From Actinomycetota bacterium (GTDB lineage Bacteria; Actinomycetota; Actinomycetes; S36-B12; UBA10799): a DNA stretch of 64,000 nt. Position numbers and translations under genes: made by a program. The notes beneath the pieces are model-generated. The model was not told where the DNA came from, ran no database searches, and saw only the letters and a program-made list of their open reading frames with translations. Below are positions 8,306 through 22,291 of the stretch, piece after piece. Positions within the stretch are counted from its first letter, which is position 1; the number at the start of each line of letters is the position of its first letter. The stretch is from assembly GCA_020637055.1 (NCBI GenBank), contig JACJWR010000003.1:393550-457549 (forward strand), read 5' to 3'.

Positions 8306-9529
8306 ATGCGGACCTCTGAATATTCGTCGGCGGATGCCGAGCGGCGTGCGCCGGAGCGGCCGAAACGACCTGTGCGCGATCCCTTCCGCCGGGACCGGGC
8401 GCGGGTGCTGCACAGTTGGGCGTTGCGCCGCCTGGCCGACAAGACCCAGGTGCTGCTCCCGGGGGAGTCCGATTTCCCACGCACCAGGCTGACTCACACC
8501 CTGGAAGTGTCCCAGGTCGCCCGCGAGATGGGTGATGAACTCGGCTGCGACCCGGATATCGTCGACACCGCCGGCCTCTGCCACGATCTCGGCCATCCGC
8601 CGTTCGGACACAACGGGGAGTCCGCGCTCGATTCGGTGGCGGCCGCCATCGGTGGCTTCGAGGGCAACGCGCAGAGCTTCCGGGTGCTCACGAGGTTGGA
8701 GCCCAAGGTCATTGTGAAGGGTCGGTCGATGGGGCTCAACCTCACCCGTGCCTCGCTCGACGCCATGCTCAAGTACCCGTGGTTCCGGCGTCCCGATTCG
8801 GTGAAGTTCAACGCCTACGCCGACGACGCCGAGGCCTTCGAATGGGTCCGTCGGGGGGCGCCGGTCGGCCGCCCGAGTCTGGAAGCCCAAGTGATGGATT
8901 GGGCCGATGACGTGGCCTACTCCGTGCACGACGTGGAGGATGCGCTCTATTCGGGATTCATTTCGCCGGAGCAGTTGCAGCCGGGGCCGGAGATGGAGCG
9001 CGTTGTCGCGGTGGCGGCCGAGCAGTCGGGCCCCGAGGTGGATGTGGCAGATGTGGTGCAGGCGCACGCCCGTCTGCGCGCCCTGCCCCAGTGGCCGACG
9101 GCGTTCGACCACACCTCGTCATCGTTGGCCGCCCTGAAGGCGTTCACCAGCACCATGATCGGCCGACTCTCGGCCGCTGCGGTCGATCACACCCTGGCGG
9201 CGGCCGCGGGTGGTCCGGTGGCCAGGTACCAGGCTGATCTGGTGGTGCCGCGGGAGCAGCGGGCGGAGGTCGCGCTGCTGAAGGCTGTCTCCAGCCACTT
9301 CGTCTTCAACCGACCCGGGGTGAGCCCGTTGTACGACGATCAGCGCGCGTTGCTCATCGATCTTGTCTCCGTCCTCAGAGAAGGGGCGCCGGATGCGCTG
9401 CATCCGATGTTCGCCGAACTCTGGCGGGAGGCACCGGGTGAGGAGGCGAGGTTCCGGGTGGTGATCGATCAAGTCGCCTCCTTGACCGATGTCTCCGCTG
9501 TGCGTTGGCACCGACGCCTGGTCGGCTGA
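8306..9529 (+). CDS. dgt: dGTP triphosphohydrolase-like HD-domain protein
   Basis: Motifs FRRDRARVLHS.ALRRLADKTQV, TRLTHTLEVSQVAR and HDLGHPPFGH are present. Start set at ATG 8306. The gene sits upstream of dnaG as usual. Confidence 0.85.
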   Translation: MRTSEYSSADAERRAPERPKRPVRDPFRRDRARVLHSWALRRLADKTQVLLPGESDFPRTRLTHTLEVSQVAREMGDELGCDPDIVDTAGLCHDLGHPPFGHNGESALDSVAAAIGGFEGNAQSFRVLTRLEPKVIVKGRSMGLNLTRASLDAMLKYPWFRRPDSVKFNAYADDAEAFEWVRRGAPVGRPSLEAQVMDWADDVAYSVHDVEDALYSGFISPEQLQPGPEMERVVAVAAEQSGPEVDVADVVQAHARLRALPQWPTAFDHTSSSLAALKAFTSTMIGRLSAAAVDHTLAAAAGGPVARYQADLVVPREQRAEVALLKAVSSHFVFNRPGVSPLYDDQRALLIDLVSVLREGAPDALHPMFAELWREAPGEEARFRVVIDQVASLTDVSAVRWHRRLVG

Positions 9530-9548
9530 TCGACGTAGGATCGTTGCC

Positions 9549-11426
9549 GTGGCCAAGATTCGCGCCGAAGACATCGGGGAGGTGCGCGAGCGCGCCCGGA
9601 TCGATGAGGTCGTGGCACAGACGGTCGCGCTCAAACCGGCCGGCGGAGGTTCGTTCAAGGGACTGTGCCCTTTCCACGACGAGCGTAGTCCCAGTTTCCA
9701 CGTCAGTCCCTCAAAAGGCCTGTGGTACTGCTTCGGCTGCGGTGAGGGCGGCGACACGATCGATTTCCTCATGCGAGTCGAGGCGTTGTCTTTCGCGGAG
9801 GCGGTCGAGAAACTGGCCGGGCAGTTCGGGGTGGAACTGCACTACGAGGAGGGTTCCGCTGCGCCGGGCCGGCAGCAGGGGCAGCGCACCAGGCTGGTCG
9901 CCGTCAACACCGCGGCGGCCGAATTCTTCGTGCGTCAGTTGGCCGGCGACGAGGCGGGTCCGGCGCGGGAATTCTTGGCGAGTCGGGGGTTCGACGAGCA
10001 GGCCGTGCGCCACTTCGGGGTTGGCTATGCGCCGCGCTCCTGGGACGCCCTGACCAAGGTGCTGCGCGGCCGCGGTTTCCGGGAGGACGAGCTTCTCGCC
10101 GCGGGGGTCGTGAGCCAGGGCAACCGAGGCGTCTACGACAGGTTCCGGGGGAGGGTGATCTGGCCGATTCGTGACCTCTCCGCCGACGTTGTGGGTTTTG
10201 GTGCCAGAAGACTCTTCGACGACGATCAAGGCCCGAAGTACCTCAATACGCCGGAGACCCCGCTCTACAAGAAGTCGCGGGTGCTCTATGGGCTCGACCT
10301 GGCTCGGCAAGCGATCGCGAAGGGGCAGCAGGCGGTCCTGGTGGAGGGCTACACCGACGTCATGGCCTGCCATCTGGCGGGCGTGACCACCGCGGTGGCG
10401 ACGTGTGGCACGTCGTTCGGCGAGGACCACGTGAAGGTGCTGCGACGGCTGCTCATGGATGACGACGCCATGCGGGGTGAAGTCATCTTCACTTTCGACG
10501 GCGACGCCGCGGGGCGCAAGGCGGCGCTTCGCGCCTTCGGTACCGATCAGTCGTTCGTCGCGCAGACGTACGTGGCCGTGCAGCCGGATGGGCTCGATCC
10601 GTGCGATGCCCGACTCGCCGGCGGTGACGAAGCTGTTCGGGCTCTGGTCGCAGGCCGGGTGCCGATGTTCGAGTTCGCCATCCGAGCTGCCTTGGAGGAC
10701 CACAACCTGGATCAGGCCGAAGGTCGGGTCGCCGCCCTTCGGGCCACCGCACCGATGGTGCAGAGCATGCGCGACGTTGCCCTGCGTGACGAATACGCCG
10801 CCCGACTCGCGGGTTGGCTGGGCATGGAGCAATCCAGGGTGGCGTCGGCCGTCCGCCAAGCCGGTGCCAAGGCGAATCGGCAGCACCGTCCGCCGCCGTC
10901 GGAGGTATCGGAACCCCGACGACCGCCAGCCGACACCGATGCGCCGGCCGACCCGCGGGTGGAGCGTCAGGCTGTCCAGGTGATGCTGCAACGACCCGAC
11001 CTGGTGTGGGAGTGGGTGGCCGCCACCGAGGACTCCGCCTTCGTCGACTCCGCCTGCGCGGCCGTGTTCCGAGCGGTCAGGGAAGCCGGGGAGCCGGAGG
11101 GGGACGACGAGGCCGCACTGAGGGGGTGGCTCGACCGTGTCCTCGCGGCCGCCGATGATGACCGGGTGCGGTTGGAGATCCGGCGCTGGTCCGTCCTCAC
11201 CCTCCCGATCTCGAACGGGGTCGACCCGGCTGCGTACGCCCAAGGTGTGATGGCGAGACTGCACGAACTCGACGTCACCCGCCGGATCGCACCGCTGAAA
11301 GGTCGGCTGGCAAGGCTCGACGTGGTCAAGGAGTCCGAGCAGTTCGCCGACTTGATGGCCCAATTGATGGACCTGGAGAACTACCGGCGGGAACTGGGCG
11401 AACTGGCCATAGGGGAGGCGCCGTGA
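9549..11426 (+). CDS. dnaG: DNA primase
   Basis: It has the zinc finger CPFHDERSPSFHVSPSKGLWYCFGCGEGGD and the Toprim segment LVEGYTDVMA. A GTG start at 9549 gives the usual VAKIRAEDI N-terminus. Confidence 0.9.
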   Translation: MAKIRAEDIGEVRERARIDEVVAQTVALKPAGGGSFKGLCPFHDERSPSFHVSPSKGLWYCFGCGEGGDTIDFLMRVEALSFAEAVEKLAGQFGVELHYEEGSAAPGRQQGQRTRLVAVNTAAAEFFVRQLAGDEAGPAREFLASRGFDEQAVRHFGVGYAPRSWDALTKVLRGRGFREDELLAAGVVSQGNRGVYDRFRGRVIWPIRDLSADVVGFGARRLFDDDQGPKYLNTPETPLYKKSRVLYGLDLARQAIAKGQQAVLVEGYTDVMACHLAGVTTAVATCGTSFGEDHVKVLRRLLMDDDAMRGEVIFTFDGDAAGRKAALRAFGTDQSFVAQTYVAVQPDGLDPCDARLAGGDEAVRALVAGRVPMFEFAIRAALEDHNLDQAEGRVAALRATAPMVQSMRDVALRDEYAARLAGWLGMEQSRVASAVRQAGAKANRQHRPPPSEVSEPRRPPADTDAPADPRVERQAVQVMLQRPDLVWEWVAATEDSAFVDSACAAVFRAVREAGEPEGDDEAALRGWLDRVLAAADDDRVRLEIRRWSVLTLPISNGVDPAAYAQGVMARLHELDVTRRIAPLKGRLARLDVVKESEQFADLMAQLMDLENYRRELGELAIGEAP

Positions 11427-11905
11427 AGTTGTTCAACCGACCGCCCGTCGAAGTGTCGAGTCTGCTCGAGCGCGGTGAGCGGGCCTTGGCCTGGGCCGAG
11501 ACCTCAGATGGTGGATGGCTGGTCGCGACCGGGACCCGGCTCTGCGGCTCGGGTCCGACGTTGGACTACCGATGGGTGTCGGTCCTCGGAGCCTCGTGGG
11601 ATCCGCCCGTGCTGGAACTCAAGATCTGGACGCCGCAAGGGGTGGACACCTCCGCCCTCACCATCCCGCAGGCCGGAGTCCTGCCACAAGTCATCCGCGA
11701 ACGAATCATGCAGTCCCTGGTGGTGCAGCGCCACGTGGCGCTGTCCGGGAAGAAGGGGGTCAGATTCCTCGCCCGGCGGGATCCGGAGACGGATCTGGTG
11801 ACTTGGCAGACGGTGCTCGACGCGGGGGTAGACGCCTCCGACCCGGTGGTCGCAGCCCGGATCGCGGAGTCGCTGGCGGTGCTGCGCGAGGCCTACGGCG
11901 TGTAG
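11423..11905 (+). CDS. hypothetical protein, translationally coupled to dnaG
   Basis: A 160-aa ORF whose GTG start overlaps the dnaG stop. I recognised no motif. Confidence 0.55.
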   Translation: MKLFNRPPVEVSSLLERGERALAWAETSDGGWLVATGTRLCGSGPTLDYRWVSVLGASWDPPVLELKIWTPQGVDTSALTIPQAGVLPQVIRERIMQSLVVQRHVALSGKKGVRFLARRDPETDLVTWQTVLDAGVDASDPVVAARIAESLAVLREAYGV

Positions 11906-11968
11906 CGCGCCTCCGGCGGCAGCGTCGGGTATGGTCGAAAGACTTGACGTCGGTGTCATTTCAGGGAC

Positions 11969-12757
11969 GTGGAGGTCGTTGACGTGCATGTGGCCGTAGG
12001 AATCGTGGCAGGCACTGCGATTCGGGGAGTGGCCGCAAACGTCATGATGCGGCCAGTGCTCGAGCGTCACCCCGACGCCTTCCTCATCACCCTTGCCAAC
12101 TACGGCGTCACCCTGCCGCTGCACCGATCACAGGAACACCTCGGCGCAGACATCGCCAGGTCGTTGGCGGAGCAGGGCAAGCCACCGGGAACCCCGATCG
12201 TGTTGGTCGGACACTCCCAAGGTGGTTTGGCAGTCCTGCGCTACACCGCCGACCATCCCGATCAGGTGGCGGCAGTGTTCAGCATCGGATCCCCCTGGAA
12301 CGGCGCCGTGAGCGCCGGACGGGTGAGCCGTCTCTTCGGCGGCCGACTGACTCCGGCGCTGCGGGACATGTCGGCCGGGTCGAGGTTCCTCACCTCGCTG
12401 CACGCGGATCTGCCGGAGGTGGCCGATCGGGTGCACAACATCTACAGCACCCATGAGCTCTTCATCCGGCCCTATGTGGACGCCCACATCGACGTTCCAG
12501 GGGTGTCGAACACGCTCATCGCAACGGAGGAGGAACACCTTCGGCACCTGCAGATGTACCCGGACCTTGCCCTCGACGACATCATCCTGGGCCGGGTCAA
12601 CCACCTCAACGAGATGCACTCGCCAGAGGTCAGGCAGAAGATCTGGGTGAAGGTGAACGAACTCAACGCCGCCTTGTCCGCCCGCGGGGCCGCCGGCCCT
12701 TCGCCGCGATCCTCCCAGCTCCCGCGCCGGGATTCGAACCTGGAACCGTCCGATTAG
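11969..12757 (+). CDS. alpha/beta hydrolase (lipase-like, GHSQGG nucleophile elbow)
   Basis: It contains the VLVGHSQGG motif. The last 13 codons (QLPRRDSNLEPSD) are read from the inverted tRNA-Asn fragment. The start is uncertain. Confidence 0.55.
   Translation: MEVVDVHVAVGIVAGTAIRGVAANVMMRPVLERHPDAFLITLANYGVTLPLHRSQEHLGADIARSLAEQGKPPGTPIVLVGHSQGGLAVLRYTADHPDQVAAVFSIGSPWNGAVSAGRVSRLFGGRLTPALRDMSAGSRFLTSLHADLPEVADRVHNIYSTHELFIRPYVDAHIDVPGVSNTLIATEEEHLRHLQMYPDLALDDIILGRVNHLNEMHSPEVRQKIWVKVNELNAALSARGAAGPSPRSSQLPRRDSNLEPSD
12718..12756 (-). repeat. displaced 3' half of tRNA-Asn (anticodon loop to 3' end), inverted relative to the intact gene
   Basis: The 39 nt at 12718-12756 are the exact reverse complement of 22251-22289. 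Confidence 0.85.
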
Positions 12758-12775
12758 GTCACATTAGGCCGGAGG

Positions 12776-12793
12776 GGTGGACTTCTGTCCACC
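12776..12793 (+). terminator. hairpin downstream of the hydrolase gene
   Basis: The stem is ggtggac / gtccacc with loop ttct. There is no U-tract, so it is only terminator-like. Confidence 0.3.
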
Positions 12794-12855
12794 GTCGGCG
12801 CAGATGGGATCGATCGGGGTGGTAGGAGGGGTGCGGTACTCCATAGCCTCAAAGC

Positions 12856-12999
12856 ATGATTATCAAATACCCGCACGAGCCGGAGAAGAACCAGTGGTCA
12901 ACGCCTCGACTCACCGTCCTGGGTGCCGGTGCCGGCGTCGCGGGGGGCAAGGTGTTCGATAAAGACGAAACCGATTTCATCCCCAACGGACCCTCGTAG
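12856..12999 (+). CDS. 47-aa small ORF, candidate peptide
   Basis: MIIKYPHEPEKNQWSTPRLTVLGAGAGVAGGKVFDKDETDFIPNGPS. The ATG is the first start after an in-frame stop. Third-position G+C is about three quarters by hand count. There is no obvious SD. The ORF is too short for the supplied track. Confidence 0.3.
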   Translation: MIIKYPHEPEKNQWSTPRLTVLGAGAGVAGGKVFDKDETDFIPNGPS

Positions 13000-13261
13000 A
13001 GGGTCACGATCCGTACTGCCTGTGGCTAGCCCAACCGGGCTGTCAGGTGCACCCCGATCATGGTGAGGCCGCGCCCACATGTGCAGGTGGCGGCGGTGGC
13101 CGCCCAAGCAGTGGCTGGCGGCAGTTCACTTCAGTATCCAAAGGACTAGCCGCAGGGATTGGACATGCCTGGAGCCAAAGAGGTGGTCTTGGGGTCGATG
13201 CCGGAGGTCAGAGCGAACGCGACGATGAGCGCGGTGCTGTAGGTCGAGTCATACGCCTTCT

Positions 13262-13287
13262 TGGGTGTAAGACCTGGGTGTAAGACC
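13262..13287. repeat. 13-bp tandem direct repeat x2 (tgggtgtaagacc)
   Basis: Two exact adjacent copies, 25 bp outside the left island repeat. Confidence 0.85.
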
Positions 13288-13312
13288 ATCTGCTGTCAAG
13301 ATTCGGACCTTT

Positions 13313-13374
13313 GAAACCGCCCCTGAGCTGCGCTAACAGTAGGGCGGGTGGGACTCGAACCCACGACCTGCCGG
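13313..13374. repeat. left att-type direct repeat (displaced tRNA-Met 3' fragment)
   Basis: gaaaccgcccctgaGctgcgctaacagtagggcgggtgggactcgaacccacgAcctgccgg matches 21987-22048 with about 4 differences. Confidence 0.8.
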
Positions 13375-13502
13375 GTCAAGGCGCAGTGTTTCTAGACGTA
13401 TCCTGATGTATCCGCAGTGGGTTGCGATCCAACCGCTGACCAGGGCAAACAGTGTCCGAGTGAGTCTGCGCGTCTCAGGACGTGAAGTCGGCGCGGAATG
13501 CA

Positions 13503-13520
13503 GGAGTCCTGTAGGACTCC
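13503..13520 (-). terminator. perfect palindrome/hairpin just downstream of the last minus-strand island gene
   Basis: ggagtcct-gt-aggactcc has 8-bp arms and is nested in an outer ggaatgc/gcattcc pairing. It lies about 30 nt after the stop of 13552..13902. No U-tract. Confidence 0.35.
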
Positions 13521-13551
13521 CTGTAATCCGACCGCAGGTGGCATTCCGACA

Positions 13552-13902
13552 TCACCGCCGTTCGTCCTCGCGCCACTTCCGCAGCGTGGTGCGCGAGATT
13601 CCCGCCAGCCGGGCCGCCTCGACCTCCGACAGCGCCCCCCGGCGCACAGCGGACAGCACCACCCGGCGCAGGTCATCTTGCTCACGGTCGTAGCGTTGCC
13701 GGGCCTTGGCGGTGCGCTTGGCGTTGGCGCTGATGGTGCCGTCGATGACTTGCTGCGCCAGTTTTGGGTCATCGCGTTTCAGTCGGGCGATGATGTAGCC
13801 CGCATCGTGCTCACGCCTCAAGTTGGTAATACCAACTTGCCCTGTCCGGTCCCCGCCGTGTTCGGCTGCCGGGGCGATGTCCTCGGCGAGCATCCGACGC
13901 AC
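13552..13902 (-). CDS. HTH DNA-binding protein, unknown role
   Basis: It has the C-terminal HTH LSEVEAARLAGISRTTLRKW, and its N-terminal half reads GYIIARLKRDDPKLAQQVIDGTISANA. The 5' end overlaps palindrome P1, so the true start may be further downstream. Confidence 0.5.
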   Translation of the reverse strand: MRRMLAEDIAPAAEHGGDRTGQVGITNLRREHDAGYIIARLKRDDPKLAQQVIDGTISANAKRTAKARQRYDREQDDLRRVVLSAVRRGALSEVEAARLAGISRTTLRKWREDERR

Positions 13903-14165
13903 CGTTGCCGCAGCGGCCTTGAAGTGGGGTTGGTATTACCAACCCCTGCCTTGCTGTGTTGGTTGGTGCCGTTCTTGGCTGCCGGGGTGATATCCACCAC
14001 CTGGGTGAGGATTTCGGCGGCACGTTCGGGGCCGTCCGATTTGATGATCGCCGCAACCTCACGCGCCTGACGAGCGTTCGAGATGGGAACCGGTGACATG
14101 TCACCGATCGCGGTAGCAGCGCTGGCAGCAGTGATGAACTCCCGAGCGCGGCGATCATCAAATCC
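13818..14165 (-). pseudogene. degenerate, frameshifted copy of the HTH-module gene
   Basis: It encodes ...DDRRAREFITAASAATAIGDMSPVPISNARQAREVAAIIKSDGPERAAEILTQV, paralogous to the C-terminus of 14308..15006. The expected ERWGF codons read gaacgtgggga instead of gaacggtgggga, a 1-nt loss. 13998-14070 repeats 14371-14443 with 3 mismatches in 73 nt. Confidence 0.4.
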
Positions 14166-15070
14166 CCACGTTCGAGTCGTACTGCCGCGAACGGTGGAAC
14201 TTGGCCCGCAGGACCGCCTACCAGTTGATGGAAGGCGCGGAGGCGGTGTGCGCCATGGCGCACATCACGCCGGTTCCGATCACGAGTGGAGTTAGTATTA
14301 CTAACTCCTACCTTGGTGTGTTGGTTGCTGCGTCGCGGATGGCTTTGGCTGTGACGGGTCCAGACTCGGCCACCTGGGTGAGGATTTCGGCGGCGCGTTC
14401 GGGGCCGTCGGTTTTGATGATCGCCGCAACCTCACGCGCCTGACCCTCATTCGCGATGGTGGGTACATTTGTACCCACCGACTCCACCGCTGTGACAGCC
14501 TCCGACGCGGCAATCATCTTGTTGGCGTAGTTGCGCTGGAATCCCCACCGTTCGCGGCAGTACCCCTCGAACGTGGCGTACCCCTCCAGCCGATACAGGC
14601 GCCCGTCACGAATCCGGGCCAACGCCTGACCCTCGTTTGTGACCGGAACAATTGTTCCGATTTGCCCCACGGCGTCGGCCGCCTCGATCATCTGCCGGGC
14701 GCGCCGATCAGTGAACCCCCACCGTTCGCGGCGGTACGCCTTGTCGAGCGCCACGGTCCCGGCGAGCACCTGGGGCAGCAGGTCGGTCCAGTCAGCGACC
14801 AAACCGCAACGCGCCAGGTCAAACCTCAAGTCATTCGATAGTTGCGGATCCGCAAGTATCGACCCGCGCGCCCACCTGCCGCTCTCGCGTTTCCCCTGAG
14901 CGATCAGCATCAACGCACGCCCAGCGGCCTGCTGATTCGACGCCGAGGGCGGCGCCGATCGCCCGCTGCCCCTTCGATAGATTCCGCCGGTCACCGTTCG
15001 CACCACTGGATCACCTGCCGGGCGTGACCGATGTAGCCGTTGGTGATGCCCGTGTGTGTACTAAGTACAC
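13819..15070. repeat. array of eight perfect palindromes (15-24 nt)
   Basis: The eight sites are 13819-13839 caagttggta-a-taccaacttg; 13926-13946 ggggttggta-t-taccaacccc; 14090-14105 cggtgacatgtcaccg; 14288-14308 ggagttagta-t-tactaactcc; 14458-14479 ggtgggtaca-tt-tgtacccacc; 14644-14659 cggaacaattgttccg; 14842-14855 ttgcggatccgcaa; 15056-15070 gtgtact-a-agtacac. Confidence 0.85.
14308..15006 (-). CDS. DNA-binding protein with two tandem HTH-like modules (RERWGF..R.A..MI.A..AV...GT.VP..NEGQA)
   Basis: Internal repeat: YRRERWGFTDRRARQMIEAADAVGQIGTIVPVTNEGQA and CRERWGFQRNYANKMIAASEAVTAVESVGTNVPTIANEGQA. The start may be the internal ATG near 14910. Confidence 0.5.
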   Translation of the reverse strand: MVRTVTGGIYRRGSGRSAPPSASNQQAAGRALMLIAQGKRESGRWARGSILADPQLSNDLRFDLARCGLVADWTDLLPQVLAGTVALDKAYRRERWGFTDRRARQMIEAADAVGQIGTIVPVTNEGQALARIRDGRLYRLEGYATFEGYCRERWGFQRNYANKMIAASEAVTAVESVGTNVPTIANEGQAREVAAIIKTDGPERAAEILTQVAESGPVTAKAIRDAATNTPR

Positions 15071-16149: not shown

Positions 16150-16929
16150 TCAGTCGAACGACCCACGCGGCCCGTCGCCCCTGTGCGTGAGGGACTTCCT
16201 CAGCGCACGCTGCAACGTCTCCGTGGCCTTCACGCCGTTGCGTTGCAGCGCTCGCCAGTCACCTGCGAGCGTGCTCCACTCGCTCGCAACGGTCTGAGCA
16301 AGTCGAGACACGATCTGTCGATCCTTCCCGCTGTCCACGAGTTGCTGGACTTCCGTGACGAGTCGCTGACGTGCCGAGACGTACTCGGACGCGACTGGGA
16401 TCGGGAGGTCGGGCAACTTCGCCCGCGTCGATGTCTGCGCGTGCGGTGGTGTGGCGACCACACGCACGAGATCCAGACGCTGTGCCAGCACAGCCTGGGC
16501 GTCGGCAGCGGCCTTGTCGGCAGCGGCCTGCTTGCGCTCCCACGCCTTCACGGCGGCCACGGCAGCGACCTCGGCCTGGCCCAGCACAGCGTCGGCAGCC
16601 TCGCCCAGCGCGGCGTGCAGCGCCCACCAGCGCCGGGTCACGAGGTCGGCCTGCACAGCCTGGAACCGCTCGGCTGTCGCGAGTGCTTCCTCCAGCCGCC
16701 AGGTGTCGTTGCGCACGCTGGCGAGATCCTCCCCGGCCTCGGCAGCGGCGCGCAGCGCCTCGGCGTATGCGTCCGGCGCGGCAGCGTGTGCGCGTCGCGC
16801 CTCGGCCACCTTCACGTTCGCAGCCTTCAGCGCAGCGACCGCGTCCTGCAACGCGGCGTAGGCGTCCGTGACTGGGGTCGGCAGGTCGAGTCCAGACAGG
16901 TCTGGGGCGGCGTATCGGGTGCTTGTCAT
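16150..16929 (-). CDS. hypothetical Ala-rich, probably all-helical protein
   Basis: A 259-aa ORF overlapped by the upstream gene. I recognised no motif. Confidence 0.5.
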   Translation of the reverse strand: MTSTRYAAPDLSGLDLPTPVTDAYAALQDAVAALKAANVKVAEARRAHAAAPDAYAEALRAAAEAGEDLASVRNDTWRLEEALATAERFQAVQADLVTRRWWALHAALGEAADAVLGQAEVAAVAAVKAWERKQAAADKAAADAQAVLAQRLDLVRVVATPPHAQTSTRAKLPDLPIPVASEYVSARQRLVTEVQQLVDSGKDRQIVSRLAQTVASEWSTLAGDWRALQRNGVKATETLQRALRKSLTHRGDGPRGSFD

Positions 16930-17198
16930 TCTGAGTACCTCCGGTTGGGGTCGAGCAGGTGTCGTAGTTGGCCGGATTCGTGCAGGCGCACGATCTCTTC
17001 GGGCGCGAGTCCGCGCAGCCCGGCCCTCGTGATCCGCCCCTCGGCGTCGCGTTCCGGTTTCGTGCGCCCGGCGAGCAGGTCGTCGAGTTGCCCGAGAGTG
17101 CGGGCGCGTTCGATCTGCTCATGGTCGAGTCCACGCAGGTCGTCCCTCGTGAGTTGGGGCGGGCGGCTCTTGCCGCTCGGGTCGATGTAGTCGGTCAT
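16926..17198 (-). CDS. hypothetical protein with an internal duplication
   Basis: From ATG 17198: MTDYIDPSG.... It has two copies of (L/I)TR..LRGL..E.I.R....GQL..LL. Confidence 0.45.
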   Translation of the reverse strand: MTDYIDPSGKSRPPQLTRDDLRGLDHEQIERARTLGQLDDLLAGRTKPERDAEGRITRAGLRGLAPEEIVRLHESGQLRHLLDPNRRYSE

Positions 17199-17241
17199 CG
17201 GTGTTTCCTTTCGTTGGTTGTGAGGACGGTCTTCTTGGTTG

Positions 17242-17646
17242 TCATCGGGCAGGTTCTTTCGCGAGTTCGTCGGCCACCGAGTTGATCTCCTTCGCACGAT
17301 CCGGCGATCCGCCAACGTCGGGATGGAACACGCGCATGAGTGCGGCTCGGAGTTTGGGTCGCAGTTCCGGCGAGCACTCTTGGAACGCCTCGCGTACCCA
17401 CGACGCACTTGAAGTCGTGGGTTTTGCTTTGCTCCCCGTGTCCGGCGTGACGACGGTGATCCCGACCGCGGTGAACGCCGCCTTGAGTGAAGGCCAATGG
17501 CCGGATTCGACGTACCAGCAGCGATCCAACTTGGACCATCGGCGGGCATACGCGGGCACCGTGCCCTTGATGATGTTGCGCGCCTCGTAGGGCGAGCGGA
17601 TCTGCCACTCGTTGCCGAGGGCCATCTTGGTTGCGGTGACGATCAC
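17242..17646 (-). CDS. hypothetical protein; N-terminal DUF5710-like pattern and a C-terminal J-domain-like HPD segment
   Basis: The N-terminal part reads WQIRSPYEARNIIKGTVPAYARRWSKLDRCWYVE, and the C-terminal part reads LMRVFHPDVGGSPDRAKEIN. Both assignments are from memory of the family patterns. Confidence 0.45.
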   Translation of the reverse strand: MIVTATKMALGNEWQIRSPYEARNIIKGTVPAYARRWSKLDRCWYVESGHWPSLKAAFTAVGITVVTPDTGSKAKPTTSSASWVREAFQECSPELRPKLRAALMRVFHPDVGGSPDRAKEINSVADELAKEPAR

Positions 17647-19019
17647 GAGGCACGCTCGCAGCGTTCGCAGCGGTTCCGACCTGGGACTACCAGGAGGATC
17701 GGGTTACCGCAGGTGTCGCACCTCGGCCGGTCGGATGACTCGGGTGTCACGGGTGTCACGGGTGTTTCCGAAGGCGCGGGTGACTCGGGTGTCACGGGTG
17801 TCACGGGTGTTTCCGAAGGCAAGTAGCGGGACCAAGGGTCTTCCAGGTCCGCGCGCCGATAGCCGCGATGCCTATCGGGGCCGTCCCGATCCTGCTTCGG
17901 CTTCACTCCGTACTGGCGAAGGCGACGCGACAGGTCGCGCGCGTCCAAAGCCTTACCCCTCAGGTCAGACCAAGGCTCCTCCTCCATCTCGTGCAGAGCT
18001 TTGATGATGACCTCGGTGGGCAGGTGTGCCGGGTTGCCCTTCGAGTTGAACACTGTCCGAAGCGACCCCAGCAGTCGCACGTTCAAACTGGTGGTGGAGT
18101 TCTCCTCTGCCGCCTTCACCATCGCCACTGCTGCGTCTCGGGCAAGGGTCGGCCACTCACCACCTGCCAGGTCGGCGATGGCGATCAGCGGCTCCCAGCA
18201 GTCCGCGTCCCTGTCTGTGATGACATCGGGCAGGTCGGGCCAGGTGTCGGCCAACGCTGGAAGGTGTGGGTTGAGCCAGTCGGCGAGGTCGTCTCGCAGA
18301 GCGTGACCTTCGGGTTCTTGACGCCGGCGGCGATACGGTTCCACCCGTTCCCCTGGGGCGCGTCTGCGCATCCGGATGACGATCGAGCGGGTCATGATCG
18401 TGTCCGGAAGGTCGTTCAGTCCGGCTAGTGCCACGGGGGCGAAGCAGGGGAAGGTTTCGATGGTGAACGTCTTTCCCGTCATCGCCACCCGCTGCGCGTA
18501 TCCGGAAGACCGGTATCCCGCGTTCACGAACCCGCGCAGGTCTTCGTGATCCTTCGATGCGCGAGGTCCGAACACTGTGTCCGCCTCATCGAGCATGATC
18601 GTTGGCCGGTCTACTACGAATCCGTCTTCGTCTGGGGTCATGGACCTGTAGAGCACTGCCACGGAGACGTTGAAGGTCAGCATCGGGTTGGGTGAAAGCA
18701 ACTCCAAGACTTCGAGGAGTCGAGTCTTTCCCGAACCGGGTTCGGGTGAGAGTGCCGCTAGCCGGGGTGTGGTGTCGAAGGCTTCGACTGCGTGGGCGTG
18801 GGCAACCCACAGGGTCGTTGCGGTGTAGGCGTGTTCGTCGGGTAGGACGGTGAAGCGCCTGATGAATGTCTCCACGTCTCCGAGTAGCCGCGCGCCTTCC
18901 GGGGTATCCGTGACATCCGTGACATCCGAGTCATCCGTGACCCGCGCGCCTTCCGGGGTATCCGTGACATCCGTGACATCCGAGTCATCCGGGTCTTGCG
19001 GTGCGGTGAAGGTCATCAT
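17643..19019 (-). CDS. DUF3631-type P-loop protein with a C-terminal zinc ribbon
   Basis: It has Walker A SPEPGSGKTRLLE, Walker B IMLDEAD and a C-terminal CDTCGNP...RCERCERAS. Repeated peptides sit at both termini. Confidence 0.75.
   Translation of the reverse strand: MMTFTAPQDPDDSDVTDVTDTPEGARVTDDSDVTDVTDTPEGARLLGDVETFIRRFTVLPDEHAYTATTLWVAHAHAVEAFDTTPRLAALSPEPGSGKTRLLEVLELLSPNPMLTFNVSVAVLYRSMTPDEDGFVVDRPTIMLDEADTVFGPRASKDHEDLRGFVNAGYRSSGYAQRVAMTGKTFTIETFPCFAPVALAGLNDLPDTIMTRSIVIRMRRRAPGERVEPYRRRRQEPEGHALRDDLADWLNPHLPALADTWPDLPDVITDRDADCWEPLIAIADLAGGEWPTLARDAAVAMVKAAEENSTTSLNVRLLGSLRTVFNSKGNPAHLPTEVIIKALHEMEEEPWSDLRGKALDARDLSRRLRQYGVKPKQDRDGPDRHRGYRRADLEDPWSRYLPSETPVTPVTPESPAPSETPVTPVTPESSDRPRCDTCGNPILLVVPGRNRCERCERAS
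17737..17820. repeat. tandem 45-nt units (1 full + 39 nt) containing 4 x GTCACGG
   Basis: gactcgggtgtcacgggtgtcacgggtgtttccgaaggcgcgggt is repeated. GTCACGG occurs at 17746, 17755, 17791 and 17800. Confidence 0.85.
18888..18989. repeat. tandem 54-nt units containing 5 x CCGTGAC, an inverted counterpart of 17737-17820
   Basis: ccgcgcgccttccggggtatccgtgacatccgtgacatccgagtcatc occurs twice. CCGTGAC occurs at 18908, 18917, 18935, 18962 and 18971. Confidence 0.85.
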
Positions 19020-19906
19020 GCGGCACCTCCGTTGGTGCCGTGCCGCATCCCAGACTTGATCGTGGCCGTCGCTTCACGCTCGGTGAGGCCCAACCGGACC
19101 GCCGTATCGGTGAGGCTGCGGTGAAGGTCGTCATCGAGCAGTCCGAGGACGGCGGCCCGCTTGGACGCCCAGAACAGTCCCGCGTTCCGGTTGCCCTCGC
19201 CTTGCCGCTCCAGCCACTTCACCAACTGGTCGCCGTCGTTGCCGCGACGGCCCGGCGTCCTCTTCGGCTGCGGGCGTTGCAGTCGCGGGGGGTCTAGCCG
19301 GTTGGAGATCGCCTCCACGTCGAGCGGTTTTGGGTCGCGAACGTGGTCGAAGTTCAACCACTTGTACCGGCCTGGTCCGTCGACGCCTTCATCTGCGGCG
19401 ACAGTGGACGGGGCGAGGAGGACGTATCCGCCTGCGGCCTTGATGTCGATCCGGTGGCGGGGAAATGATCGGCATCCGGAGCCGGACGTGGGGAAGAACA
19501 GGTGCTTGCCACCGTTGCGGGTTTCGGCCTCGGCGAAAGCGCCCGCGAGTAGACCGGCGCGGCCCAGTCGGCGAAGCGCGGCGAACCCGTCTCCGTCGAG
19601 CCGGACGTCCACGTCGAGCACGTCGAAGAAGACCCCGGTGGGTGTTCCGATGTTCGCTTCCGGCTCCGAAGTCCACCACCTTCGGATGGTGGCTACGTCG
19701 GTCGTGGCGTCTTTGAATCCGTGCGGGGCCAACCTTCCGATCGGTGCTTTCCCGCCCGGCTCGCAGGGGAAGACGGGCCATCCGGCTTTGACGTAGACGA
19801 GGGCAGCATCCGCGAGTTGGGGTACCCTTGTCTTGATCTTCTCGTCTTGGAGATCCTCGGCCGCCCGTGCTCCCCGGTGTGGGCGGCCTCTCCCTTCCCG
19901 GCTCAT
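19016..19906 (-). CDS. bifunctional DNA primase/polymerase (Prim-Pol) domain protein
   Basis: YVKAGWPVFPCEPGGKAPIG..HGFKDATTD...IGTPTGVFFDVLDVD...GGKHLFF is the typical Prim-Pol N-terminal domain. Confidence 0.8.
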   Translation of the reverse strand: MSREGRGRPHRGARAAEDLQDEKIKTRVPQLADAALVYVKAGWPVFPCEPGGKAPIGRLAPHGFKDATTDVATIRRWWTSEPEANIGTPTGVFFDVLDVDVRLDGDGFAALRRLGRAGLLAGAFAEAETRNGGKHLFFPTSGSGCRSFPRHRIDIKAAGGYVLLAPSTVAADEGVDGPGRYKWLNFDHVRDPKPLDVEAISNRLDPPRLQRPQPKRTPGRRGNDGDQLVKWLERQGEGNRNAGLFWASKRAAVLGLLDDDLHRSLTDTAVRLGLTEREATATIKSGMRHGTNGGAA

Positions 19907-20085
19907 CGGCAGCCCCCGGCGGAATCGGCGAACAAGGCTTCGATGGAATCGGCGAAGATGATCCGCCGCCGCCCTATCTGGGTGAACTCGATTCGACCCT
20001 CACGCATGAGTCGGTAGAGCGTTGCTCGGGAGAGCGTCGTCTTGCTGACCGCTTCGGTCACGGTGAGCGCTTCGCGCATGGTCAC
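19903..20085 (-). CDS. xis: excisionase / AlpA-like HTH protein
   Basis: 60 aa: LTVTEAVSKTTLSRATLYRLMREGRIEFTQIGRRRIIF. It sits in the usual xis position. Confidence 0.7.
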   Translation of the reverse strand: MTMREALTVTEAVSKTTLSRATLYRLMREGRIEFTQIGRRRIIFADSIEALFADSAGGCR

Positions 20086-20196
20086 TCCTTTCGTTGAGTG
20101 ACTTCACTTTCACTGATGTATGAGTGATCGGCATGTCAGTGATGCCAAATCAGTGAAACTCATGATTCACTCTGGCCCGTAGAGATCCGCAGTGAT
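20083..20196. promoter_or_regulatory. divergent switch region with nine AGTGA/TCACT pentamers
   Basis: This is a locally AT-richer intergenic stretch between xis (-) and 20209 (+). Pentamers occur at 20083, 20098, 20105, 20111, 20124, 20139, 20153, 20168 and 20192. Some are arranged as inverted pairs (agtga-ct-tcact; tcact-8-agtga). Confidence 0.45.
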
Positions 20197-20208: not shown

Positions 20209-20799
20209 ATGGGCACTGAAAACGGAGCGATTCCGGAAGTTCACTGGTCAATCGGATTCACCGGCAAGATGGCACTGATCCGCCGCAGAATCGGCGAGCA
20301 TGACCGGATCTTCGCGACGATCGCAGACAACGTGACCTTCACGGTCCTGCGGGCGGGCACCCGCATCGCCGAAGGCGCGGTGATTGTGGACGAGGCCGAT
20401 GGGCGGCTGGTCATCAGTGAGTACAGCGTCCGATTCCCCGAATCGAACCCCGACATCCTCTGTGCGGACTTCCTGCGATCCCTCACTGAAGGTGCCGCGC
20501 GGAAGTTGTTGGTGGAGACCCAGATCAACGGGGGCGAGATCAAGATTCCTGAAGGCTTGACCCGCAGCCTCGGGCGTGCAGGACTACCAGCTGCGATCGC
20601 ATCCGGATTCCAACGCAAGGAGCGACCGCGACTCTCGGATGAACTCTTGCGCGAAGTCCACTCGGTCTACGCCAGTGCCGAGGATCGCGCGCGACTGACG
20701 GCCGTCCGTAAGCACTTCGGGATCACCCAGTCGCGGGCGCAGAACTGGGTCGCAGCGTCACGCAAACGCCTGCCCGAACTGTGGGAGGTCTCGCGGTGA
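20209..20799 (+). CDS. hypothetical protein with a C-terminal HTH-like segment, coupled to the integrase
   Basis: A 196-aa ORF with C-terminal RLTAVRKHFGITQSRAQNWVAASRKRL. Its stop overlaps the integrase GTG (GTGA at 20796-20799). Confidence 0.55.
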   Translation: MGTENGAIPEVHWSIGFTGKMALIRRRIGEHDRIFATIADNVTFTVLRAGTRIAEGAVIVDEADGRLVISEYSVRFPESNPDILCADFLRSLTEGAARKLLVETQINGGEIKIPEGLTRSLGRAGLPAAIASGFQRKERPRLSDELLREVHSVYASAEDRARLTAVRKHFGITQSRAQNWVAASRKRLPELWEVSR

Positions 20800-21944
20800 G
20801 CCGTAGCCTGTGGAAGCGCAAGGATGGGCGTTGGGGCGGCGAGGAGCGCGTCCGCGACCCACGCACGGGCGGCATCGTCAAGGTGTCGGCCACGGCCCGC
20901 ACCCGCAAAGAGGTTGTGGCCCGGCTGGAAGGCCGCGCGCAGCGGGTGAAGGACCACAAGGCGCAGCGGGACTCCACCTGCACCTTCGCCGATGCGGCAA
21001 CGTCCTGGGCATCCTCTTTGGCCGACGTCGCCCAGTATTCGGCTACGACCCGCGAGTTGTATTCCGGGGACGTGCGACGCTACCTCGCCGATGGTGGCCT
21101 TGCGATCGGCGAGATCCCGCTGTCGAAGTTGCGCGGTTCCGACTTCGAGGATGCACTGGGAGAGATGAGGTCGCGCGGGTTGTCCGCATCGGTGCGTAGG
21201 CGGTTCCTCACAATCTCCAAGGCCATCATTCGGCGGGAGATGCGCGACGGCCGGCTCGGGTTCGACCCGACGCAGGGGGTGAACCGTCCCAAGTCCGATC
21301 CGATCCAGCCGAAGGCGCACACCGCTGCCGAGGTTCGCGAAATCCTGACCCGCACGTCGGGTACCCGCGTGGGCAACCTGGTGGTGTTCCTCGCCCACAC
21401 GGGCATGCGGGTTGGTGAGGCACTGGCCCTGCAATGGCCGGACGTGGACTTCGACGCTTCCACGGTCCGGATCTCCGGCACGTTGGTGCGGATCACCGGG
21501 GAGGGCGTCTACAAGGCTGCGACGAAGACGAAGGGTTCCAAGAGGACGGTGCCGCTGAACTCGTACGCGGTTGAGGCCTTGCGCCGCCAGGCGCAGATGC
21601 AGACAGCGGACGCCGAACGTGCCCACTCCAAGTACGAGTTCAGCGGGTACATCTTCACCGGCGACTTCGGCAACGTGCTCGACCTTCGCAACGCGTCGCG
21701 CGCCTACAAGGATGCACTCAAGTCCGACAGGGATGGGGAGTCGATCGAATCGTCTTTCCATCGGCTGCGGCATTCGTTCGCGACGTTGCTTGTGGGGACC
21801 GGGGAGTCCGCGAACACGGTCGCGGCGATCCTGGGTCACAACTCCACGAGGGTGACATTGGAGACGTACGCGGCGGCGCTGGACGAGTTCAAGTCGCAGG
21901 CTACGGACCGGCTCGGTTCCCTGTATGAAGCCGATTCCCTGTAA
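20796..21944 (+). CDS. int: tyrosine recombinase / phage-type integrase
   Basis: It has the N-terminal SAM-like region and the C-terminal catalytic pattern ...HTGMRVGEALAL..., HRLRHSFATLLV, LGHNSTRVTLETY. Confidence 0.9.
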   Translation: MSRSLWKRKDGRWGGEERVRDPRTGGIVKVSATARTRKEVVARLEGRAQRVKDHKAQRDSTCTFADAATSWASSLADVAQYSATTRELYSGDVRRYLADGGLAIGEIPLSKLRGSDFEDALGEMRSRGLSASVRRRFLTISKAIIRREMRDGRLGFDPTQGVNRPKSDPIQPKAHTAAEVREILTRTSGTRVGNLVVFLAHTGMRVGEALALQWPDVDFDASTVRISGTLVRITGEGVYKAATKTKGSKRTVPLNSYAVEALRRQAQMQTADAERAHSKYEFSGYIFTGDFGNVLDLRNASRAYKDALKSDRDGESIESSFHRLRHSFATLLVGTGESANTVAAILGHNSTRVTLETYAAALDEFKSQATDRLGSLYEADSL

Positions 21945-21986
21945 CTTCCCCTGTAACGGCCTCGCGGGTGGTTGTCGACCGGTGGT

Positions 21987-22048
21987 GAATCGCCCCCTGA
22001 CCTGCGCTAACAGTAGGGCGGGTGGGACTCGAACCCACGGCCTGCCGG
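21987..22048. repeat. right att-type direct repeat, overlapping the 3' part of the intact tRNA-Met
   Basis: Matches 13313-13374. Confidence 0.8.
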
Positions 22049-22087
22049 ATTATGAGTCCGCCGCTCTAACCAGCTGAGCTACCGCCC
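22013..22087 (-). tRNA. tRNA-Met (anticodon CAT; could alternatively be the lysidine-modified Ile2 type)
   Basis: The minus strand reads ggggcggtagctcagctggttagagcggcggactCATaatccggcaggccgtgggttcgagtcccacccgcccta and folds as a cloverleaf. The acceptor end has G1-U72. No CCA is encoded. Confidence 0.85.
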
Positions 22088-22216
22088 CGTGGATGGCACC
22101 ACCCTACAAGGAGCGATCCTCGTCCGGAGCAGCACTCGAGGCGACGCCACCGGACTCCGTGCGCCGGTAGGCGTGCCGGTTCCAGGCCGGTGGTGCTGCT
22201 ACCCTTGTCCACGCAT

Positions 22217-22291
22217 TCCCGCGTAGCTCAACGGCAGAGCATCCGACTGTTAATCGGACGGTTCCAGGTTCGAATCCCGGCGCGGGAGCCA
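22217..22291 (+). tRNA. tRNA-Asn (anticodon GTT), CCA encoded
   Basis: tcccgcgtagctcaacggcagagcatccgactGTTaatcggacggttccaggttcgaatcccggcgcgggagcca. Confidence 0.9.

Follow-up and report, generated by a model that had tools for sequence, protein, structure and literature searches.

The Pfam family PF12307 (DUF3631) corresponds to RepAM, the initiator of the integrative element pMEA300. Purified pMEA300 RepAM is reported to bind repeats of 8 bp that lie inside the sequence coding for it (te Poele et al., 2006, via PMC2440964). In the same 2008 review, the repAM repeats are described as able to form a hairpin, with similar hairpins in pMEA100, pSE211 and a Salinispora remnant, and orfA-repAM is given as one of two regions needed for pMEA300 replication (PMC2440964). 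The published RepAM elements have adjacent repeats, a stable hairpin and a proposed pC194-like nick site in a single-stranded region (PMC2440964). Thus, repeats inside repAM are already known, and in the known cases the arms are adjacent. Moreover, in a survey of integrative and conjugative elements from actinomycetes (AICEs) a Prim-Pol gene sometimes adjoins repAM (PMC3218068). Here we analyze a DUF3631 gene in a 64,000-nucleotide stretch of an Actinomycetota bacterium (assembly GCA_020637055.1, contig JACJWR010000003.1), hereafter called the window. The gene lies in an 8.7-kb integrative island and carries arrays of short repeats, inverted relative to each other, at its two ends. These arrays are probably the cognate iterons of the RepAM-type initiator encoded between them, and would form the cis-acting replication or control region of the island.

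The locus resembles pMEA300, pMEA100 and pSE211 in that its initiator belongs to the same family, the initiator gene contains identical 8-bp repeats in both orientations, and the element is integrated at a tRNA gene with int and xis beside the replication genes. It differs from pMEA300, as known by its published description, in that the arms lie 1.1 kb apart at the ends of the gene and no single array forms a hairpin.

Tandem Repeats Finder resolves a 3' array at 17732-17820 (period 45, 2.0 copies, 97% matches) and a 5' array at 18888-18991 (period 54, 1.9 copies, 100% matches), both with a 9-nt sub-period. In a repeat search the two align as inverted arms of 79 nt that are 78% complementary (17732-17810 and 18913-18991), the best stretch being 47 nt at 83% (17732-17778 and 18891-18937), and the arm-to-arm distance is 1,067-1,147 nt. 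The tandem units and inverted arrays that the initial annotation had described at both gene ends are therefore real, and its hand alignment of about 38 matches in 48 positions is consistent with the 47-nt stretch. The heptamer positions it had listed are exact: GTCACGG lies on the + strand at 17746, 17755, 17791 and 17800 in the 3' array, and on the - strand at 18908, 18917, 18935, 18962 and 18971 in the 5' array. The heptamer as such is not enriched across the 64-kb window (22 copies versus 22.45 expected); enrichment concerns the exact 8-mer and its clustering only. This 8-mer, TGTCACGG, has eight exact copies in the window, all inside the arrays, four per array and on opposite strands, so that all eight, together with one-mismatch copies, fall within the initiator coding sequence (17643-19019).

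Both arrays are read in frame in this open reading frame (ORF) on the - strand, as had been claimed. The 5' array encodes DDSDVTDVTDTPEGAR twice, and the 3' array encodes SETPVTPVTPES-type units. The repeating element measures 9 nt and contains a core of 7-8 nt, TGTCACG(G). Split in register into successive 9-mers, the 5' array has on its coding strand the sequence GACTCGGAT-GTCACGGAT-GTCACGGAT-ACCCCGGAA-GGCGCGCGG-GTCACGGAT, repeated twice, and the 3' array is the reverse complement of this higher-order unit minus one 9-mer. The 45/54-nt unit is homologous between the arms with its spacer CCGRAAGGCGCG included, the 5' unit having one 9-mer more. This homology spans the entire unit and reaches beyond the heptamers.

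The initial annotation had proposed to ask whether homologous DUF3631 genes carry terminal repeats and whether their two ends co-vary. They do, the former as inverted pairs and the latter strongly. A protein search recovered 5,768 homologues at E ≤ 1e-20, in which (D-V-A)n or (D-V-T)n recurs near the N-terminus, or about 35 residues ahead of the second repeat, and (S-A-T)n, (S-V-T)n or (P-V-T)n recurs past the DUF3631 domain. VA is paired with SAT only (13 cases) and VT with SVT or PVT only (10 cases), with no mixed case. DNA was obtained for 157 homologous loci, 153 of which were covered by a survey of array pairs. Inverted pairs with a 9-nt period and at least 7 of 9 positions matching are present at 72 of the 153 loci, and direct pairs number 23. 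The core varies greatly between loci (TGTAAC, TGTTTC, TGTTGC, TGTAGC, TGTGAC, TGTTCC, TGTACC, TGTGGC, TGTCGC, GGACGGG and others). Its general form is (GA)T-GTN-NCG-GA, in which N1 is the wobble base of a valine codon and N2 the first base of the next codon.

We assigned each array to a TGTNNC type independently of its partner arm. The NN dinucleotide is the same in both arms at 48 of 51 loci, covering 12 NN types, where 6.9 matches are expected. None of 100,000 permutations reached 48 (maximum 19); the permutations treat loci without regard to phylogeny, and these statistics are inflated by shared ancestry. The concern is partly answered by joint changes of the arms that recur within the window's own clade (58-81% protein identity), where NN is CA, TG, TA or AG. 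Agreement between the arms is 0.98, 0.94 and 0.94 at positions 4, 5 and 7, and 0.48 and 0.42, about chance, at positions 8 and 9. The constraint thus falls on a repeated 7-nt core, which fits protein sites and not a stem. The NN test and the per-position test replaced a null comparison between loci, in which the best value among all array pairs is taken; this null was rejected as too permissive, 12% of comparisons reaching 8/9. By a looser statistic, a 7-mer occurs at least three times on each strand in 56% of the loci versus 13% of codon-shuffled controls.

Three loci had been considered counter-examples because of a PQH C-terminus or of VTD at both ends. They were withdrawn as such, since their DNA arms are perfectly inverted. 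At L155, TGTTGCGGA in three copies is read as VAD and CCGCAACAT in three copies as PQH, and the DNA arms are perfect inverts. At L156 the VTD peptide is encoded at both ends, as GTT-ACG-GAT (5') versus GTA-ACA-GAC (3'), and these are inverted as DNA. At L157, three copies of TGTAGCGGA face three of CCGCTACAT, again perfect at the DNA level.

The window protein matches PF12307 with an E-value of 1.4e-61 (208 bits, residues 216-399) and contains the Walker A (GSGKT) and Walker B (LDEAD) motifs of a P-loop ATPase core. In an AlphaFold2 model (predicted local distance difference test, pLDDT, 87) this core is accompanied by a helical domain, by a zinc ribbon and by a winged helix that spans about residues 330-400; strands 375-379 and 382-388 make up the wing. 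The array-encoded residues 1-40 and about 400-430 are predicted to be disordered (pLDDT below 50), and in the model these segments are under no predicted structural constraint. Foldseek matches the model to ORC/Cdc6, MCM, RuvB and the helicase parts of NrS-1, MPXV (monkeypox virus) E5 and ASFV (African swine fever virus) PrimPol, with E-values of 5e-8 to 2e-5. The template modelling (TM) scores are no higher than about 0.3, a level to be expected when the query has several domains. By sequence, the protein weakly matches a pRN-type plasmid of Sulfolobus (55% of the query aligned, at 23.6% identity); no PHROGs family was matched, and exact look-ups with either start codon returned no match.

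The initial annotation had named the Prim-Pol and the DUF3631 protein as candidate binders of the repeats. To weigh them we used the mutual information between NN and the columns of the protein alignment, calculated over 96 non-redundant loci. Columns 403, 406, 407 and 409, as well as 299 and 302 in the class with gaps of about 300 nt (see below), were set aside as arm-encoded. The top co-varying columns that are left are Q376 (z 15.9), R383 (14.1), H384 (6.6) and R385 (5.1), against a background median of 0.8, and all four lie in the predicted wing. The pairing looks like a code: AG goes with N376 and V383, TC with K376 and T383, TT with Q376, and TG with 'TP' at 383-384, and the window and L087, which both have CA, have Q...RH in common. 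In pairs of loci matched for identity (0.63 versus 0.62), the same wing columns differ most when NN differs (delta 0.42 and 0.38, compared with a mean of 0.012 and a standard deviation of 0.052). The likely binder is therefore DUF3631/RepAM, through the wing of its winged helix, rather than Prim-Pol. The C-terminal zinc ribbon is unlikely to be the general iteron reader, because many array-carrying homologues lack it.

From homology and from the covariation of arms and wing we infer that RepAM binds the arrays in this element and, one step further, that they act as an origin, with a melting site and possibly looping between arms 1.1 kb apart. Of the two parts of the earlier proposal, binding by the island's replication protein thus gains the firmer footing, while a bipartite origin stays conjectural. 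Each arm offers four or five copies of the 7-8-bp core at 9-bp spacing, and the arms face each other. The cores are written into the codons of two protein tails predicted to be disordered, the 5' end reading (GA)T-GTN-NCG-GA as Asp-Val-Thr and the 3' end reading its reverse complement, in another frame, as Pro-Val-Thr. A constraint on the DNA can coexist with coding, because the cores sit in the codons of disordered tails. RepAM, an AAA+/superfamily 3 (SF3)-like ATPase followed by a winged helix, would recognize the cores after excision of the island by means of its beta-hairpin wing and assemble on both arms in opposite orientations. Together with the adjacent, co-expressed Prim-Pol it would open and prime the DNA. 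RepAM bound to sites inside its own transcription unit might also exert negative feedback on its expression.

The distance between the arms varies widely among the homologues. In L153 (NZ_CP108827.1), a free circular 13.5-kb Streptomyces AICE plasmid with an FtsK/SpoIIIE gene, one arm is located within the 3' end of the coding sequence and its partner in intergenic DNA; the arms are perfectly complementary over 29 nt and 160 nt apart, with more copies between them. About a dozen GTAGCGG copies in both orientations occupy 1880-2115 of this plasmid, from the 3' end of its DUF3631 gene into the intergenic DNA downstream. This stretch folds into one long hairpin (z -11.9 versus shuffles) and corresponds to the published pMEA-type layout.

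ARRANGEMENTS

Among the 157 loci, 41 have arms about 20-200 nt apart, 18 about 300 nt, 8 about 365-475 nt and 9 about 1,060-1,160 nt. This last class comprises the loci with arms at the N- and C-termini (N/C layout), as in the window. The N/C layout is found in at least three clades with different cores, namely the window clade, L130/L137 (TGTTCCG) and L136/L138 (GGACGGGT). In 24/24 loci with an arm gap above 290 nt, TGTNNC lies on the coding strand in the upstream arm, as in the window; close arm pairs mostly have the opposite orientation. The spacers of the close class are just slightly AT-richer (0.62 versus 0.665). In L157 and L158, relatives of P0004, a ParB_N-like gene and a 160-aa ORF precede the RepAM gene instead of Prim-Pol; a Prim-Pol partner is thus not obligatory for RepAM genes that have the N/C layout.

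These comparisons raise the possibility, which we put forward tentatively and as a single joint proposal, that the RepAM family uses an evolvable code, in which a 7-bp core TGT-NN-CG in the disordered tails of its own gene is read by two or three wing residues, and that in the N/C layout the arms act as double-stranded protein sites bracketing the gene and not as a hairpin. Specificity could switch when near-synonymous changes spread through both arms, by slippage or conversion, and wing substitutions follow. Such switches would give rise to new incompatibility or origin specificities.

The closest relative of the window locus, L154 (European Nucleotide Archive ERZ28655859, scaffold_40745), was aligned to window positions 17560-19070. 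Its gene body is nearly identical as DNA, and the protein is 98% identical over the conserved core. The two differ almost only in the arrays: one 54-nt 5' unit is deleted in L154, and four changes are located at the end of the 3' array. We name two point variants of the TGTCACGG core, TGTAACGG and TGTAGCGG. Judged from this pair of sequences, the comparison indicates that the arrays are the fastest-changing part of the gene and that they evolve both rapidly and in concert.

Several observations weigh against the arrays being RepAM iterons with an origin function. In L154 all three 5' cores are TGTAACGG, a synonymous change from GTC to GTA, versus the TGTCACGG still present in the 3' arm, so that the matching of the arms is not absolute. 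An array pair under strict criteria was not detected in 81 of the 157 loci. Residues 299 and 302 also co-vary with NN, and they are arm-encoded in one arrangement class. The inflation of the permutation statistics by shared ancestry belongs here as well. With regard to the mechanism, no copy of CTTGAT, the pC194-like nick motif, lies within 17732-18995, that is, in or between the arms, the nearest being at 17566 and 19055; in this the locus is unlike the description of pMEA300. The single arrays fold no better than shuffles (z 0.03 and +1.65), and a pMEA300-type hairpin is ruled out for window arms that are 1.1 kb apart. No AT-rich unwinding stretch adjoins either array (flank GC 0.61-0.68), and the 9-bp spacing of the iterons differs from the helical repeat.

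The alternative that survives best, although we consider it unlikely, is that the arrays are operators only. Sites for RepAM or another regulator would tune Prim-Pol/repAM expression through autoregulation, copy control or perhaps looping, and the origin would lie elsewhere in the island. Most of the data are compatible with this. The review on pMEA300 suggested that the sites, with their unusual placement, may serve regulation (PMC2440964), the 5' arm begins about 25 nt past the repAM start codon, the arrays are without an adjoining AT-rich region while the lowest GC of the island is found at 20101-20150, and other palindromes with TGTNNC cores occur at 14.1-14.9 kb. However, pure operators would have no need of arrays in both orientations, conserved over gaps of 20 to 1,150 nt. 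Replication of pRN1 needs the inverted repeat next to the rep gene and is restored by this repeat when it is relocated, and for pMEA300 the review lists korA and orfA-repAM as the replication-essential regions and reports no separate origin (PMC2440964).

Much less probable is that the arms pair in the repAM mRNA or in single-stranded replication intermediates, as a panhandle or hairpin, and that structure is selected and not protein recognition. A stem would lead one to expect the covariation of inverted arms equally well, the L153 region does fold far better than shuffles, and a hairpin model was proposed for pMEA300 (PMC2440964). Yet only seven of nine positions co-vary and positions 8 and 9 are at chance, so that the putative helix would be broken every 7 bp (also in L156), and a stem has no need of tandem identical short units. 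Moreover, the core dinucleotide co-varies with specific RepAM residues, 1.1 kb separate the arms in the window, and for pMEA300 the purified protein is reported to bind the repeats (PMC2440964).

We regard as highly improbable the other reading offered by the initial annotation, an invertible segment, in which the arrays would be recombination sites that flip the gene body and switch RepAM on and off. It is true that 79-nt inverted repeats of 78% complementarity flank a 1.1-kb segment and that the array regions change fast among close relatives. But the segment is the conserved ATPase/winged-helix core, without alternative coding or promoter. There is no adjacent invertase and no serine or extra tyrosine recombinase near the gene, the sole recombinase being the tRNA-att integrase. 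Equivalent arm pairs of relatives are 20-500 nt apart or have one arm outside the gene, and in all ten assembled loci with the N/C layout (10/10) the gene is intact, collinear and in a single orientation.

Finally, it is hardly credible that the repeats are slippage-prone duplications of a low-complexity linker, selected or tolerated at the protein level and reverse complementary by accident: both arrays do encode disordered, repetitive peptides whose copy number varies between close relatives, but the peptides differ across loci (PQH, SAT, PVT) while the DNA symmetry is constant, is kept across different reading frames and in arms that can be non-coding, and extends to N1, a Val wobble position that still co-varies between the arms, and this covariation contradicts the outcome named earlier in which homologues would have absent or unrelated repeats at their ends.

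The island around the gene is delimited by a 63-nt direct repeat (92%) at 13312-13374 and 21986-22048, which represents its attachment (att) sites. A metagenomic contig (L160; ENA ERZ27309119, k141_562416) matches the window at 100% identity as far as 13374 and resumes at 21994. This empty site lies exactly between the 55-nt att cores, and the island is thus a discrete 8,674-bp insertion; as the empty site is in a near-identical genome, the element moved recently. A second sequence, contig JAGQUA010000028.1 of assembly GCA_020438705.1, is 100% identical to window positions 9423-13905 and carries the left end of the island. The features of the gene and of the island are collected in the table below.

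Features of the repAM locus and of the surrounding island, in window coordinates
Feature	Position	Strand	Basis or remark
3'-end (C-terminal) array of candidate iterons	17732..17820	+	two 45-nt units of 9-nt sub-units
Exact TGTCACGG copies, 3' array	17745, 17754, 17790, 17799	+	flanked by degenerate TGACTCGG units
5'-end (N-terminal) array of candidate iterons	18888..18995	- (coding strand)	two 54-nt units
Exact TGTCACGG copies, 5' array	18908-18915, 18917-18924, 18962-18969, 18971-18978	-	
One-mismatch core GGTCACGG, 5' array	18935-18942	-	
repAM (DUF3631) gene, 458 aa	17643..19019	-	translation; PF12307
Wing codons, residues 376-385 (QDRDGPDRHR), predicted beta-hairpin	17865..17894	-	proposed to read the iteron core
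C-terminal CxxC...CxxC zinc ribbon of RepAM	17646..17729	-	translation and AlphaFold2 model
Prim-Pol gene	19016..19906	-	PF09250, E 1.7e-33; stop overlaps repAM start (ATGA)
HTH_17/AlpA-type excisionase or regulator gene	19903..20085	-	Pfam and PHROGs scans
Tyrosine integrase of the island	20781..21944	+	PF00589, E 1.3e-25; adjoins tRNA-Met
tRNA-Met	22013-22088	-	contains right att core
Left att core, copy of 3' part of tRNA-Met	13320..13374	.	direct repeat and empty-site junction
Right att core, inside tRNA-Met	21994..22048	.	direct repeat and empty-site junction

Because the Prim-Pol stop codon overlaps the repAM start codon, the two genes are probably co-transcribed and translationally coupled. 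Further ORFs of the island match a WhiB regulator and a helix-turn-helix (HTH) protein. Weak matches of small ORFs were also seen, to a head-scaffolding-like protein (16926-17282) and to a TerS/HTH-like protein (13552-13902), and no capsid gene is among the matches of the island ORFs. The HPD tripeptide in ORF 17242-17646 had suggested a J domain, a candidate that was dropped as Pfam gives no DnaJ match. Unlike an AICE, the island combines int, an xis-like HTH gene, Prim-Pol and RepAM with no FtsK/SpoIIIE-type transfer (Tra) gene among the ORFs scanned. It is thus not a complete AICE, and may be a mobilisable or satellite-like element instead.

The left part of the island contains further repeats. 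TGTNNC-type cores form head-to-head palindromes at 14091-14106, about 14462-14477, about 14643-14658 and 14842-14855. Their sequences are CGGTGACA|TGTCACCG, whose 6-nt core is that of the island iteron, GGGTACAttTGTACCC, CGGAACAatTGTTCCG and TTGCGGATCCGCAA. Their positions are paralogous between ORF 14308-15006 (-) and a truncated duplicate upstream of it, with the symmetry retained and the sequence differing, and could be extra initiator sites, operators or partition-like sites. There is also a 90-nt direct repeat (13997-14086 and 14370-14459; 91% identical, 373 nt apart), a partial duplication of the 3' part of ORF 14308-15006. A GTTGGTAwTACCAAC-like palindrome is present three times, at 13821-13837, 13929-13945 and 14291-14307 (the third being GAGTTAGTATTACTAACTC), in low-GC spots of the left end; a regulator of the island probably uses them as operators.

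Within the island GC is lowest (0.42) at 20101-20150. This stretch falls in the intergenic region from which the xis-like gene and ORF 20209-20799 diverge, and has repeats of the CACT/AGTG type. It probably serves as a promoter/operator region; should the origin lie elsewhere than at the arrays, it is also a candidate for the melting site. Outside the island, 39 nt from the 3' part of tRNA-Asn (22217-22291), at 22251-22289, recur as a perfect inverted copy at 12718-12756. The copy lies at the end of a hydrolase ORF, across the island at a distance of 9.5 kb, and may be the scar of another integration or rearrangement.

Three features appear to be undescribed: a split layout with the whole gene between the arms, the covariation of these arms across the family, and the apparent code linking wing residues to the core dinucleotide. 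Among the literature mentions found, DUF3631 occurs in the 2011 AICE survey only, and RepAM only there, in the 2008 review and in a 2012 commentary. If our reading is correct, it provides a sequence rule for the cis-acting replication sites of thousands of DUF3631-encoding integrative elements, plasmids and prophage-like contigs, actinobacterial and other. It would also provide a natural and testable code of initiator-origin recognition, core dinucleotide versus wing residues, and a clear example of overlapping codes, in which disordered protein tails are shaped by the protein's own DNA-binding sites. The split layout would then argue that the hairpin is not essential, and would bear on whether RepAM replicates its elements by a rolling circle or in a primase/helicase-driven mode. 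Were the arms of the N/C layout to act as double-stranded protein sites, this would revise the rolling-circle/hairpin model proposed for pMEA-type elements.

Beyond the RepAM elements, a parallel in the combination of parts is the Sulfolobus plasmid family of pRN1. Its origin is an inverted repeat just downstream of the rep gene that is required in cis, and within the family the sequence of this cis element varies while its symmetry is conserved (PMC2777425, PMC4234260). It consists of one non-coding 100-nt stem-loop, no tandem short iterons are reported for it, and a cognate site for the pRN1 winged helix was not found experimentally (PMC2777425, PMC4234260). The window has the same parts as pRN1 ORF904 (prim-pol, SF3 helicase and winged helix), split over two genes, and shares with pRN1 an inverted repeat placed at, or following, the rep gene's 3' end. 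In sequence, however, the two initiators are very distant.

The initial annotation had drawn a parallel to P4, a small integrative element with two separated clusters of short iterons, ori and crr, that are bound by the alpha primase-helicase. In alpha, a DnaG-type primase is fused to the helicase. To our knowledge, several kb separate the two P4 clusters, which do not coincide with the ends of the initiator gene. P4 alpha also has a C-terminal winged helix (PMC2777425). The window likewise has two separated clusters of candidate iterons, 1.1 kb apart, in a small integrative element. RepAM resembles SF3/AAA+ helicase-initiators at the level of the fold only, without a PHROGs match, and the parallel therefore stands as a mechanistic analogy and not as homology.

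More distant precedents come from phage and viral origins. The lambda origin consists of iterons inside the initiator gene O, in the part that codes for a linker; they are about 19 bp long, direct, in one block and beside an AT-rich region. For SV40 large T antigen and papillomavirus E1, short inverted elements, adjacent and non-coding, direct the head-to-head assembly of an SF3 helicase-initiator. RepAM is not homologous to the lambda O, SV40 or E1 initiators at the sequence level tested, and the element belongs to none of these families, nor to those of P4 and pRN1. In comparison with the theta origins of the lambda O and Rep_3 types, which have direct iterons of about 17-22 bp and an AT-rich element, the window has 9-nt units in two inverted arrays. 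It shares with the lambda origin the placement of the candidate iterons within the initiator gene, and with SV40 and E1 the inverted arrangement of the recognition elements.

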